Source of the DNA: an uncultured Elusimicrobia bacterium
Lineage (GTDB): Bacteria > Elusimicrobiota > Endomicrobiia > DTEH01
Direction: 5' to 3'
Length of the DNA stretch: 64,000 bases
Assembly (NCBI GenBank): GCA_964508565.1
Contig: CAZDUB010000006.1
Span: forward strand, 10,647 to 74,646
In this document: positions 3,277 through 32,451 of the stretch, piece by piece
Position numbering within the stretch: position 1 is the first letter of the stretch
Layout: each line of letters starts with the position of its first letter
Translations under genes and position numbers: made by a program
The notes under the pieces: model-generated
Databases searched by the model: none
Told to the model about the DNA's origin: nothing
What the model saw: the letters and a program-made list of their open reading frames with translations, nothing else

Positions 3277-4272
3277 ATGGAAAAATTGCTTTTACCAACA
3301 GAATTTGAAGATATTACAGATGAATCAAAAAGAAAAAATAAATATGGATATGAGGTATATGGTAAATTTGCTATATATCCTTTTGAAAGAGGATTCGGTC
3401 ATACTATAGGTAACTCTTTAAGAAGAATACTTCTCTCAAGTATTGAAGGGGCAGCTATTACAAGTTGCAGAATTAATAATGTTTTGCATGAATTCAGCGA
3501 AATTCCAGGTGTTAAAGAAGATGTTATATATATATTAATGAATCTTAAAAAAATAAGATTTAAAGTATATGGGGATCATCCTGAAAAAATAAAATTATCT
3601 GTATCAGGAAAAGAAAAAAGTATTGTTGTAGCTGGCGATTTTCAAACCTCGCATAATGTAGAAATAGTAAATAAAGACGAATACATTGCAACGATAGATG
3701 AGAGGGGATTGTTAGAAATAGAATGTGAAGTTAAAAAAGGACGAGGATATGTTTTGAAAGAGCAAAATCAAACAGAAAATGCGCCTATTGGTACTCTGTT
3801 TGTTGATAGTATGTTTTCACCAATTATTAAAGTAAACTACGAAGTTGAATCAGTACGTGTAGGAGAAAAAACTGATAAAGATAAACTTATTATGGAAGTT
3901 TGGACAGATGGTACCATTTCTCCGAAAGATAGCATAATTTATGCTGCTAATATATTAAGAGAAAATCTAAAAGTTTTCTTTATAAAATCAGCAATAGAGT
4001 CAGCTTTATTAATGTCAGAGAAAAAAGAAAGTGAAATGAGTGAACAAGAGATGCTGAGATTAAAAAACTTGTTTTCTCAACCTATAGAAAATTTAGGCTT
4101 GTCTAACAGGCCAAAAAATTGTTTAAAAGAAAATAATATAGAGACTATAGGTCAACTTGTTCAAATGACAGAAGAACAACTTAAAATGTTAAGAAATTTA
4201 GGAGAAAAATCTTTAGAGGAAATAAAACAAAAACTTAAAGAAAATAATCTAAGTTTGGGGATGAAACTATGA
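3277..4272 (+). CDS. rpoA: RNA polymerase alpha subunit
   Basis: PFERGFGHTIGNSLRRILLSSIEGAAIT, IPGVKEDV, TDGTISP, C-terminal RNLGEKSLEEI. Confidence 0.98.
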   Translation: MEKLLLPTEFEDITDESKRKNKYGYEVYGKFAIYPFERGFGHTIGNSLRRILLSSIEGAAITSCRINNVLHEFSEIPGVKEDVIYILMNLKKIRFKVYGDHPEKIKLSVSGKEKSIVVAGDFQTSHNVEIVNKDEYIATIDERGLLEIECEVKKGRGYVLKEQNQTENAPIGTLFVDSMFSPIIKVNYEVESVRVGEKTDKDKLIMEVWTDGTISPKDSIIYAANILRENLKVFFIKSAIESALLMSEKKESEMSEQEMLRLKNLFSQPIENLGLSNRPKNCLKENNIETIGQLVQMTEEQLKMLRNLGEKSLEEIKQKLKENNLSLGMKL

Positions 4273-29558: not shown

Positions 29559-30356
29559 ATGGAAGTTAAAAAAAGGTTAGATAAAATACTAGTTGAAAAA
29601 AATTTGGCTGATTCTAGGGCTAAGGCTGCCAAAATAGTAAAAGATTTTGGAGTAAAAGTGGACAATGAAGTTGTGTATGACCCATCAAAATTAGTCAGCG
29701 AAGATACAAAGATAGAACTTGTTAAACCCTACGAATATGTGTCTGCCGGTGGTTACAAATTAGAAGGATTGCTTAATAAAAAAATAATAGATGTTAAAGA
29801 TAAAATTTGTTTTGATATAGGTTCTTCAACTGGTGGTTTTGTTGATTGCCTTTTAAGATTTGGTGCAAAAAAAGTTTATTGTTGTGATGTAGGGAAAGAC
29901 CTTTTACATGAAAAGTTGAGAAACAATCCAAAAGTAGTCTTGTTTGAAGGAGTTAACTTTAGATATTTCGTAGAATTAGGATATAAAGAAAAAATAGAAG
30001 ATAAAATAGATATATTTACAGCAGATGTGTCATTCATATCTTTGACAAAAATTATTCCAGTTATATTAAAAATAGCACCATATAAACATATTTTAATTGC
30101 TCTTATCAAACCGCAGTTTGAATGTGAGCCCAAATATGTAAAAAAAGGTATAGTTAGAGAGGAAAAATATCGCCTTCAAGCAGTAGAAAAAATTGTCAAT
30201 TTTTGTAAACAGCTTGGATATAAAAAAAATACTGTAGAAGAATCATTAGTTAAAGGTAAAGAAGGAAATATTGAGTATTTTGGTGTGTTTGAATTTGTAA
30301 GTGAATGTGTTCATTGTTCTAATTTAAAAAGAACCACAAAGTACGCAAAGGCGTAG
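29559..30356 (+). CDS. tlyA: TlyA-family rRNA methyltransferase
   Basis: KRLDKILV (S4 domain), YVSAGGYKL, DIGSSTGGF, DVSFISL, LIKPQFE, GKEGNIEY. Confidence 0.93.
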   Translation: MEVKKRLDKILVEKNLADSRAKAAKIVKDFGVKVDNEVVYDPSKLVSEDTKIELVKPYEYVSAGGYKLEGLLNKKIIDVKDKICFDIGSSTGGFVDCLLRFGAKKVYCCDVGKDLLHEKLRNNPKVVLFEGVNFRYFVELGYKEKIEDKIDIFTADVSFISLTKIIPVILKIAPYKHILIALIKPQFECEPKYVKKGIVREEKYRLQAVEKIVNFCKQLGYKKNTVEESLVKGKEGNIEYFGVFEFVSECVHCSNLKRTTKYAKA

Positions 30357-30675
30357 AAGATTTATGAGAGTAAAAACAAATAGATGTATGAATAAATTTG
30401 TAAAGGCCTTATTTAATATAAGTCCACCTGACTTCTTCTGTGCTCCCTTTGTCTTTTATTTTTTCTCTGTTGTAAAATTAATGAAGTATACCACAAAGGA
30501 CATAAAGACCCAGAGAATTTATGAAAGACAAGAAAGTAAAATCTGTGAATGAGTTTGTTAATGATTCTCTCTACACATTTATTCAACAAATTTTAAGATT
30601 CTCTGTGTTCTTTGTGTCTCTTATATTCTCTGTGGTGAAAAATAACAAACCACAGAGAGTACGAAGACAAAGAGG
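30332..30675. repeat. Two tandem ~158-nt hairpin units with 9-mer arms, plus a third left arm
   Basis: Left arms start at 30332, 30490 and 30648 (ACCACAAAG-GACATAAAG-ACCCAGAGA type). Right arms at ~30432-30473 and 30598-30637 (CTCTGTGTTCTTTGTGTC...CTCTGTGGT). Confidence 0.82.
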
Positions 30676-30679
30676 TTTT

Positions 30680-30759
30680 GTTAGGGTCAGCATATTACTG
30701 AACCTTAACCTTCTATACCCTACACCATTTTATAAATTGTAGGGTTCTGATTTATCAGA
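30680..30759. repeat. Three abutting short hairpins
   Basis: GTTAGGGTCAG/CTGAACCTTAAC with AACCTT x2; perfect ACCCTACA/TGTAGGGT (30717-30745); TCTGA/TCAGA (30746-30759). Confidence 0.75.
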
Positions 30760-30762
30760 CAT

Positions 30763-30874
30763 AGTGAGCAGTTGGTAGCTAGGAGTTGGTAGTAAGTAGT
30801 GATTGGTAGGTAGTGAGGTAAGATATTAACATACTCTGAACTTCCTGCTCCAGATTCCGAACTACAAACTAACT
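30763..30874. repeat. Facing degenerate heptamer tracts
   Basis: Eight AG/GG-initiated 7-mers at 30763-30818 (AGTGAGC AGTTGGT AGCTAGG AGTTGGT AGTAAGT AGTGATT GGTAGGT AGTGAGG). Six ACT-type 7-mers at 30833-30874 (ACTCTGA ACTTCCT GCTCCAG ATTCCGA ACTACAA ACTAACT). Confidence 0.85.
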
Positions 30875-31038
30875 TCCCCTCTATTAAGAGGGAATTAAGG
30901 GGTGTATTACACGAGTTTATTGAGTTTGTTGAATTTATTAAGTTTTCTAGTATAGTGCTAAATCCTAAACCTTTTTGAAAACAGACAACGATAAAACCAA
31001 ACGACCAGATAATCAAACAACTAAACAATCACATAACT
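30875..31038. repeat. GC hairpin, 9-mer tract and 8-mer tract
   Basis: CCCTCT-ATTA-AGAGGG then AATTAAGGGGTGT; GAGTTTATT GAGTTTGTT GAATTTATT AAGTTTTCT (30913-30948); seven octamers AGACAACG ATAAAACC AAACGACC AGATAATC AAACAACT AAACAATC ACATAACT (30983-31038). Confidence 0.8.
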
Positions 31039-31050
31039 GATATTTTAATT

Positions 31051-32451
31051 ATGCAAAACTTATATCGCCAGATTTTTTTCACAACAACAAAATATGTGTT
31101 TTTAAGAAACTTTTTTATGGTAATTACTGGAATTGTAAGCATCTTCATTGTTCGTCTGTTGGGCCCTGAGGAATACGGTAAGTACGCATTAGTTTGGCAA
31201 CTTATAGGAACAATAGGGCCAATACTTTCTTTAGGTTGGCATGCAACTTTAGCAAAGTTTTTACCTGAAAAAGATGAACAAGAGAAAAAAATTTTATTTT
31301 CACAAAGTGTGTTAAGTGTAGCAGTTTTATGTTTGCTTTTCTTACTCATAGGATATATTATAATTCAATTTCTGCCGCAAATAATACCAGCAGAAATAAA
31401 GCAAATAAAAACCTTATTTCTTTTTTTTATATCTTTTGTTGCATTCTTTAATGTGTTTGAAGGTTTTTATAGGGGATTAGGAAAGTTTAACCAGTGGAGT
31501 ATTATTGATGGAATGAGGTCTAATTTGGGAAATTTGTTGGGACTAATTTTTCTAATTTTAGGTTTTCGTATATACAAAAGCATAATATATAGCAATTTTG
31601 CTGTAGCTTTTATTTTTTTAGTTGTTGTTGCTTTTTCATTACGTAATTATTTCTTTTTCACCAAAAACAAAGTTGAGAAAGTAGTTTTAAAATTTGCTTT
31701 AACTATGTTTTTAGGCCAGATAGTTTATCTTTTTATGTCTAGTATAGATTCTGTGATGTTGCGTTCAATACTAAAAGATCCTTCAAAAGTTGGTATATAC
31801 AATGCAGGTATAAGAATTCCTAAAATTATTGAAACGATGTTTATTGCGGTTCTGTCCACACCATTTTTATATTATTTTTCATCACCTGGATTTGCTGAAC
31901 AAAGATTAAAAATACTGGAGTTTAGTAGTAGAATTTTATTTATTTTTTTTGGATTTGTATCATTACTGCTGTTCGTTTTCTCAAAATATATAATATTTAT
32001 TCTATTTGGTAACATCTACAGTGAGAGTATCATAACTTTACAACTTTCAAGTTTAGGTTTGTCGTTACTTGCGTATCTTATATTGTTTTCTGTTTATTTT
32101 ATGTCAATTAACAAGCCAGAAATAGGTACTTTCTTAGGTATAGCTTATTTTTTAATAGTTGGAATGTTGAATTTATTATTTATTCCGATGTTTAAATCGT
32201 ACGGTCCCGCAGTGAGTAATCTTATTGCTTTAGTTGTTTATTGTATTTTAATTTTAGTGATTGTAAAAAAATTAGAGTTTTTTAAAAAATTTTTGTTAGT
32301 TGGTTTATGTATATTTATATCTGTGATGTTTGGATATATTTTTAATCATTTATTATCTCCTGCTATATATCTTCTACTTATTATTTTGTTTAATGTAATC
32401 ACTTTTGAGGAGGGGAAAAAAGTATGGGAGATTATAATTCGCAAGGTTTGA
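31051..32451 (+). CDS. Oligosaccharide flippase (Wzx-like)
   Basis: VRLLGPEEYGKYAL, VGIYNAG, ILFGNIYSES, GPAVSN; 12-14 TM segments; heads a glycosyltransferase cluster. Confidence 0.9.
   Translation: MQNLYRQIFFTTTKYVFLRNFFMVITGIVSIFIVRLLGPEEYGKYALVWQLIGTIGPILSLGWHATLAKFLPEKDEQEKKILFSQSVLSVAVLCLLFLLIGYIIIQFLPQIIPAEIKQIKTLFLFFISFVAFFNVFEGFYRGLGKFNQWSIIDGMRSNLGNLLGLIFLILGFRIYKSIIYSNFAVAFIFLVVVAFSLRNYFFFTKNKVEKVVLKFALTMFLGQIVYLFMSSIDSVMLRSILKDPSKVGIYNAGIRIPKIIETMFIAVLSTPFLYYFSSPGFAEQRLKILEFSSRILFIFFGFVSLLLFVFSKYIIFILFGNIYSESIITLQLSSLGLSLLAYLILFSVYFMSINKPEIGTFLGIAYFLIVGMLNLLFIPMFKSYGPAVSNLIALVVYCILILVIVKKLEFFKKFLLVGLCIFISVMFGYIFNHLLSPAIYLLLIILFNVITFEEGKKVWEIIIRKV

Follow-up and report, generated by a model that had tools for sequence, protein, structure and literature searches.

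The window analysed here is a 64,000-nucleotide stretch of a contig from the metagenome-assembled genome (MAG) of an uncultured member of the Endomicrobia from a hot spring (1.65 Mb, 32% GC, 88% complete; labelled G000, with contigs C1, C2 and so on). In this window, a tlyA-like rRNA methyltransferase gene (29559-30356, plus strand, as for all window features given below) is followed by a wzx-like flippase gene (31051-32451), which is the immediate downstream neighbour of tlyA in relatives. The two genes are separated by a gap of ~700 nt without a credible gene. Across the end of tlyA and into this gap runs a tandem array of hairpin units with inverted arms of CACAGAG-type words, which is the subject of this analysis.

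The left arms of the array follow the pattern ACCACARAGNNNNNNAAG, which occurs at exactly three sites in the window (30333, 30490 and 30649). An earlier reading of the DNA, made from its letters and open reading frames (ORFs) and referred to below as the sequence-only reading, had described two hairpin units of ~158 nt with left arms at 30332, 30490 and 30648. The second of these positions is exact and the other two are off by one, and the two units are indeed present, with periods of 157 nt (unit 1) and 159 nt (unit 2) and with arms that pair on folding. The left arm of each unit is built from three words of 9 nt (ACCACAAAG / GACATAAAG / ACCCAGAGA). After 70-76 nt of internal module comes the right arm, an imperfect inverse of the left arm with the terminus TTCTCTGTGGT, and an A-rich linker of 12-16 nt follows it. 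The left arm starts with the head ACCAC, the right arm ends with GTGGT, and between them the CACAGAG-type words, about three to an arm, recur at a 9-nt period.

Unit 1 (30333-30473) starts with left arm 1 (ACCACAAAG TACGCAAAG GCGTAGAAGAT; 30333-30361), which holds the tlyA stop codon TAG at 30354-30356. It continues with an internal module of the type called A below (TTATGAGAGTAAAAAC...TATGAATAAATTTGT; 30362-30429), homologous to the internal modules at C1:205k and C8:70k, and with right arm 1 (...TTCTTCTGTGC TCCCTTTGTC ...TTCTCTGTTGT; 30430-30473), identified by arm pairing and folding; linker 1 follows at 30474-30489. Unit 2 (30490-30636) comprises left arm 2, found by pattern match (30490-30518), a type A module placed by unit alignment and spacer shuffling (30519-30594), and right arm 2 (TTCTCTGTG TTCTTTGTG TCTCTTATA TTCTCTGTGGT; 30595-30636), the part of the array most copied across the genome, with nine blastn matches. 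In the minimum free energy (MFE) fold, right arm 2 pairs with left arm 2 and, at its tip, with left arm 3, and linker 2 (GAAAAATAACAA; 30637-30648) forms the loop of the palindrome between right arm 2 and left arm 3. Left arm 3 (30649-30675) has no partner right arm and opens a third, truncated unit of a long variant, whose interior (...CTGATTTATCAGACAT, 30747-30762) also occurs at C8:70k and C1:301k.

RNA of the plus strand from 30320 to 30690 was predicted to fold with an MFE of -91.4 kcal/mol (z = -4.0, better than 100 of 100 shuffles), with the arms of each unit paired together; the minus strand of the same region gave z = -2.9. A 41-kb contig from the independent Logan assembly of the source run showed zero differences over 29900-31300, so the array is not an artefact of the MAG assembly. 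Only one public run, a hot-spring metagenome, has the array sequence, and has it as contigs only. Three other identities were considered and rejected: an adapter or Tn5 mosaic-end artefact (the right arm contains TGTCTCTTATA), on the uniform depth of the 41-kb contig and the dispersal and divergence of the family; a CRISPR (clustered regularly interspaced short palindromic repeats) array, as the "spacers" share homology among themselves and with copies at other loci, and the repeats come as inverted pairs; and integron attC sites, on anatomy.

The array lies inside a lineage-specific insert in a formerly tight tlyA-wzx junction, which is probably an operon junction. In relatives (three congeneric genomes and 11 metagenome loci, the latter on contigs with TlyA proteins 72-78% identical), the two genes are 4-264 nt apart, and the minimal junction reads ...GGTTAA-TAAC-ATGCAAAA. 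In the window, comparison with these relatives delimits a mosaic insert of ~750 nt (30297-31045) made of several repeat families, whose module copy numbers were obtained by blastn against the genome. TlyA orthologues have 245-246 aa and end in ...IEYFAVFKFG, whereas the protein here has 265 aa. The gene has lost its native stop, and its ORF continues for 19 codons (VSECVHCSNLKRTTKYAKA) to the TAG within left arm 1, so that in the ORF list the last 19 codons and the stop (30297-30356) come from the insert and left arm 1. The insert also has the CTGATTTATCAGACAT module (three genome copies), a CCCCTCT..AGAGGG hairpin (at least 12 genome copies) and a GAGTTTATTGAG word arm (seven genome copies). 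The hairpin module at 30872-30905 (ACTTCCCCTCTATTAAGAGGGAATTAAGGGGTGT), present in at least 12 copies of 83-94% identity, is far better conserved than the CACAGAG units. At the same junction in sister species (loci L217-L228), where the gaps measure 27, 48, 112, 150 and 264 nt, small palindromes belonging to other families lie nested, among them GTAGGGCAAAC...GTTTGC and TCCCGCAATCTGCGGGA. Because the sister species carry different small palindromes there, hairpin repeats seem to have landed at the junction repeatedly, making it a permissive hot spot.

A profile of the core formed by a right arm, the loop and the next left arm (nhmmer, cut-off E<1e-4) detected 16 cores at nine intergenic loci of this genome; weaker lone arms stand at about three further loci, and all copies are intergenic. 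Ten full units of 101-147 nt could be aligned, with pairwise identities of 34-67%. Eight of them lie outside the window array, so further full-length units, whose absence would have counted against the sequence-only reading, do exist. The arms are 29-44 nt long, and no arm pair in this genome encloses more than 150 nt. The copies, old and diverged, are flanked by A-rich linkers without a recognisable direct repeat. Units 1 and 2 share 58% identity and are no closer to each other than either is to a unit on another contig (58-61%), which indicates that the array is old and did not arise by recent local duplication. The same reading had called the two spacers related, and this holds, although by way of other copies: compared directly, spacers 1 and 2 show a marginal likeness that 133 of 2000 dinucleotide shuffles match, but no shuffle in 2000 reached the score of spacer 1 with the copy at C1:205k, of spacer 2 with that at C8:70k, or of these two copies with each other. 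As each window spacer is thus clearly homologous to a spacer elsewhere, the internal module qualifies as a genuine "type A" module, present in four copies. The element family is confined to this species within its genus: blastn of seven congeneric genomes returned zero copies, and the arm pattern is likewise absent from these seven, with at most two matches in each of six of the other ~390 Elusimicrobiota genomes. Rfam gave no match in the window.

Beyond the phylum, the arms of the window fit a design shared by many bacteria, namely about three C-R-C-A-R-A-G words at a 9-nt period behind an ACCAC head, paired with the inverse array ending in GTGGT(GAAA). The canonical 26-nt arm CCACAGAGNNCNCARAGNCNCAGAGA, with ~20 fixed bases and less than one chance match expected in 596 Gb, had more than 118 matching loci among the GTDB species genomes, spread over many phyla, and three other copies in the Endomicrobia genome fit it exactly. 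Among the matches listed are Acidobacteriota, Verrucomicrobiota, Kiritimatiellia, Planctomycetota, Chloroflexota, Gemmatimonadota, Chlamydiae, Omnitrophota and Patescibacteria, as well as a Thermincola MAG, Alcanivorax and Tolypothrix, isolate genomes included. The usual foreign form is TTTcA-CCACAGAG-nnCACAGAG-nCACAGAGA, then 4-200 variable nucleotides, the inverse arm and TgAAA, frequently right after a stop codon. In eight arm-rich genomes, the two-word pattern occurs 18-603 times each, versus 0-4 times for a reversed control. The variable dinucleotide is the same in both arms in 12 of 30 pairs (3.8 expected; maximum of 11 in 5000 shuffles), and a hand count of a Parachlamydiaceae listing gave agreement of the arms in 24 of 30 pairs. 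Another genome (L156) carries a head-to-tail array of left and right arms with a TGAAAAA linker, like the tandem in the window. At L127, in a Caldilineaceae MAG, the CACAGAGA word forms ~15 perfect tandem copies (~3472-3610) beside a canonical arm head, so word arrays can evidently expand in the manner of microsatellites. The arm pattern was present in one of 2.9 million viral contigs, and phages are not an obvious reservoir of it. Rfam assigned no family to eight canonical foreign loci, where it returned only sub-threshold look-alikes of plant miRNA precursors. The searchable literature yielded nothing relevant on the arm sequence or on miniature inverted-repeat transposable elements (MITEs) of Elusimicrobia, and no published description of the CACAGAG hairpin family or of the GxxExxY cassettes considered next.

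At locus L174, a left and a right CACAGAG arm 413 nt apart enclose a gene for a 127-aa GxxExxY protein (TIGR04256, E=8e-38). The other foreign left-right pairs more than 200 nt apart (118 loci in all) enclose ordinary genes or no ORF, and none of the 118 encloses a transposase; the pairs around ordinary genes are therefore read as separate elements. GxxExxY genes gave 33 matches in seven of the eight arm-rich genomes and none above the cut-off in 14 control genomes. By inspection, many of the 33 genes have inverted word arrays on both sides, with CACAGAG itself as the word at L188, L193, L200, L205 and L208 and, elsewhere, other words of the same design (CACCAAGG, CGCCAAG, CGCAGAG, CACAAAG and CGCGAAG).

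The Endomicrobia genome itself has three genes of the 23S_rRNA_IVP/four-helix-bundle family (S23p; TIGR02436), all of them between inverted word arrays of GTTTATTGAG, GTTCATAGT or AGTTTCAAA, with that of C3:67442-67756 weak on the downstream side. The tlyA-wzx insert counts the GTTTATTGAG word arm among its modules. Tandem Repeats Finder supports two of the brackets (C3:67340-67412/67861-67885 and C3:162853-162909/163337-163384); word-array pairing with this program was noisy at 32% GC and recovered these two of the three brackets, repeat finding without it did not recover the S23p brackets, and minus-strand blastn was too insensitive to imperfect arms. At C2:69151-69448 (minus strand), an S23p gene is split into two frames and is likely a pseudogene, still between inverted GTTCATAGT-type arms. 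An intact murA gene (C5:151200-152650) is also flanked by inverted word arrays (AAACCAAT / GGGTTTATTGGG). Inverted word arms around a gene are, on such layouts, no proof of a cassette by themselves, because two separate elements in neighbouring spacers look identical to one.

Taken together, the region holds two complete and one truncated head-to-tail copies of a non-coding foldback element, probably the shells, emptied or internally reduced, of a selfish cassette. On sequence grounds, the best fit is that the units are old, AT-drifted and gene-less members of a word-arm inverted-repeat family found in many phyla, and that a fuller form of the same arms brackets one small gene, as observed here for GxxExxY nucleases of the PD-(D/E)XK type. 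The proposal of an array of MITE-like or internally deleted cassettes in the sequence-only reading is thus the one retained, since the units have terminal inverted arms, no conserved ORF and multiple copies, and the same arms enclose small genes elsewhere. The units, as selfish DNA, may owe their entry to a nuclease, encoded as cargo or acting in trans, that promoted a cut-and-copy or transposition-like event. This nuclease would since have been lost from the genome, in agreement with how far the copies have diverged and drifted towards AT. The array could then have grown by insertion beside an existing copy or by an old local duplication. The units may persist because their arms are stop-free and lack a terminator tail, so that a tlyA-wzx transcript would read through them and fold into long stems; no terminator-like site was found on the plus strand.

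Several observations weigh against this interpretation. No GxxExxY gene was found in this 88%-complete assembly and none of its CACAGAG-armed copies carries a gene, so that mobility here is historical at best. The link between nuclease and arms is an association, not a demonstrated enzyme-substrate relation. Neither a target-site duplication nor a clean insertion boundary could be defined around the copies, and no copy polymorphism or alternative joints were seen in the contigs of the one run. The unit boundary itself is ambiguous: most arrays start with a lone right arm, and duplex energies of left arms with the upstream, the downstream and all other right arms show no consistent preference for a left-to-right unit over a right arm-loop-left arm unit. 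Finally, the element is co-oriented with the genes in all six arrays that lie between co-directional genes (p ~0.016, suggestive), which could hint at a function in the transcript.

This last point bears on the reading in which the hairpins are kept as RNA-level regulators of the tlyA-wzx transcript, serving as processing sites for a double-strand-specific RNase, as barriers to 3' exonucleases or as partial terminators that uncouple wzx from tlyA. Co-orientation in six of six arrays, the significant sense-strand fold (z = -4.0) and the position of elements directly after stop codons in many genomes all speak for it, as does the fact that stems of like design in 23S rRNA intervening sequences (IVSs) are substrates of RNase III (PMC4990558). 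However, folding both strands of the nine arrays revealed no consistent asymmetry (in total -543 kcal/mol for sense versus -520 kcal/mol for antisense, with mixed signs among loci), the plus strand is without a terminator-like site, and a match in Rfam is absent. Moreover, the copies are as diverged as 34-67% identity, and relatives manage with a 4-nt junction. RNase III (rnc; PF14622, PF00636 and tblastn) was not found in the 88%-complete assembly, although it is present in all seven congeners and in 17 of 17 high-quality relatives; the missing gene probably lies in the unassembled 12% of the MAG. We therefore regard regulation at the RNA level as unlikely, though it survives better than the other alternatives.

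Much less probable is that the units are repetitive extragenic palindromic (REP) doublets, as in REPINs, moved by a REP-associated tyrosine transposase (RAYT; a Y1 HUH transposase), for which the candidate would be an IS200-like gene at C1:273002-273667. The family does form inverted doublets with a spacer and mosaic arrays like those of bacterial interspersed mosaic elements (BIMEs), the genome does have a Y1_Tnp gene (37 bits, above the cut-off), its sole Y1 transposase-like gene, and one array (C1:279k) lies 6 kb from it. But the gene has a different palindrome, TTCCAATGCGGGTTTGGAA, at its flanks instead of CACAGAG arms; single arms are non-palindromic and lack a GTAG or CGTC head; and in other phyla the same arms bracket GxxExxY genes rather than RAYTs. 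The RAYT-like gene encodes 221 aa and has TTCCAATGCGGGTTTGGAA on both sides, and the same palindrome abuts a CACAGAG array at C1:279790-279815. From this arrangement, the Y1 gene and TTCCAATGCGGGTTTGGAA look like a separate, classical REP/RAYT pair in this genome.

Just as improbable is a purely local origin, by tandem duplication or slippage of one unit and unrelated to mobile DNA. It would account for the head-to-tail order and the regular 157/159-nt period, and the A-B-A-B pattern of units in L156 shows that arrays can grow by local duplication. It conflicts with the identity of only 58% between units 1 and 2, compared with 58-61% to a copy on another contig, with the presence of the family at nine or more dispersed loci, and with the absence of the whole insert from relatives.

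The sequence-only reading had further held that each unit launches a paralogous mini-ORF, possibly a leader peptide, immediately after its left arm. An ATG does stand 3 nt downstream of each of the first two left arms in the ORF list, opening mini-ORF 1 (30364-30552, 62 aa) and mini-ORF 2 (30521-30742, 73 aa). In the eight other full units, however, the ATG is absent and replaced by AGG, ATA, AGT or ATT, the junction after the left arm varying by copy (TTATGA, TTAGGA, TTATAA, TTAGTT, TTATTG). The frame is open in three of the ten units and closed by stops in seven, and units vary in length by amounts not divisible by 3. Between the two ORF starts, differences fall 3/7/7 at codon positions 1/2/3, with no third-position excess, and neither peptide matches any Pfam family. 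CACAGAG/CTCTGTG words read as stop-free in all six frames, so any ATG near an arm opens an ORF that runs through it. The loose peptide alignment that had been taken as a sign of paralogy has the same source: the shared motif "...F.VFF.S..FSVVK" (FV...FSVVK) is what the repeated right arm TTCTCTGTGGTG yields when translated. Both mini-ORFs were accordingly judged spurious, apparent by-products of stop-free repeat sequence rather than genes. That they are genuine genes for small hydrophobic products, such as type I toxins or leader peptides, controlled by the hairpins, is the least credible alternative: an ATG at the same position relative to the arm, a hydrophobic C-terminal stretch in each and a weak purine-rich stretch upstream favour it, against an ATG and frame not kept in 7-8 other units, length and codon-position differences unlike those of genes, a hydrophobic stretch that is the T-rich right arm in translation, and no family match.

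Returning to the reading of the units as gene-less shells, we propose as a tentative extension, held with clearly less confidence than that reading itself, that CACAGAG-type word-arm hairpins may mark the ends of small mobile cassettes that form an undescribed class across bacteria. Such a cassette would carry a gene for a tiny GxxExxY nuclease or for an S23p four-helix-bundle protein, and in 23S rRNA it would be known only as "intervening sequences". The window would represent a gene-less, tandem end state that keeps an internal module, whose Shine-Dalgarno-like AGGAG and ATG/GTG could be a relic of the start of a lost cargo gene; such a relic would explain the ATG directly after each left arm.

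The array has practical consequences for annotation, as stop-free arms give rise to spurious small hydrophobic proteins in gene calling, like the two mini-ORFs, and add false tails to real genes, such as the 19 extra residues of TlyA. For genome biology, it documents that a tight junction took in ~750 nt of repeat modules. To the picture of the arm family, the window adds copies in tandem, an internal module that is conserved, and an operon-like junction in which insertion is cleanly demonstrated by comparison. With a near-identical 26-nt arm in Endomicrobia, Alcanivorax, Tolypothrix, Thermincola, Chlamydiae and Acidobacteriota, either conserved machinery or frequent horizontal transfer must underlie the distribution. 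If the elements are linked to rRNA intervening sequences and to GxxExxY nucleases, two long-standing orphan observations would be explained.

Among known systems, REPs, BIMEs and REPINs with their RAYTs (PMC3116915, PMC3337134) resemble the window family in being short intergenic hairpin repeats, arranged as inverted doublets around a spacer and in mosaic arrays with alternating arm orientation and conserved linkers, at tens to hundreds of copies per genome. In contrast, the window arms are purine/A+C-rich or pyrimidine-rich word arrays, not self-complementary, with the head ACCAC rather than GTAG/CGTC; a palindrome other than the arms, TTCCAATGCGGGTTTGGAA, flanks the RAYT-like gene here; and the CACAGAG arm sequence is common to many phyla, whereas REPs are lineage-specific.

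ORF-bearing IVSs of 23S rRNA of the Coxiella burnetii and Leptospira type are also small selfish elements tolerated in transcripts, with terminal inverted repeats of ~28 bp in a long stem; the selfish element of C. burnetii measures 428 nt, has a terminal inverted stem of 28 bp, carries an S23p ORF and is excised from 23S rRNA by RNase III (PMC4990558). The S23p cargo family of IVSs is present in this genome within inverted word arms. The window units differ in being ORF-less, with only 70-76 nt between the arms, in lying between the protein genes tlyA and wzx and not in helix 9, 25 or 45 of 23S rRNA, and in being tandem, with arms of CACAGAG words. Excision by RNase III is a feature of IVSs, and rnc was not found in this 88%-complete assembly.

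MITEs such as the Correia elements of Neisseria and Chunjie of Geobacter are ~100-160 bp long with inverted ends of ~26-30 bp, gene-less, inserted in operons and sometimes side by side. The window units are similarly small, have terminal inverted arms (29-44 nt), lack a conserved ORF and are multicopy. A target-site duplication was not found around these old, diverged copies, nor was a DDE transposase with matching ends, and fuller copies of the CACAGAG family carry a small gene of nuclease type instead. GxxExxY (TIGR04256) cassettes in inverted word arrays differ from the window units, which are gene-less and have a conserved non-coding module of 70-76 nt in place of a cargo, but the sequence of left and right arms and their head (ACCACAGAG...CTCTGTGGT) are identical in the two.

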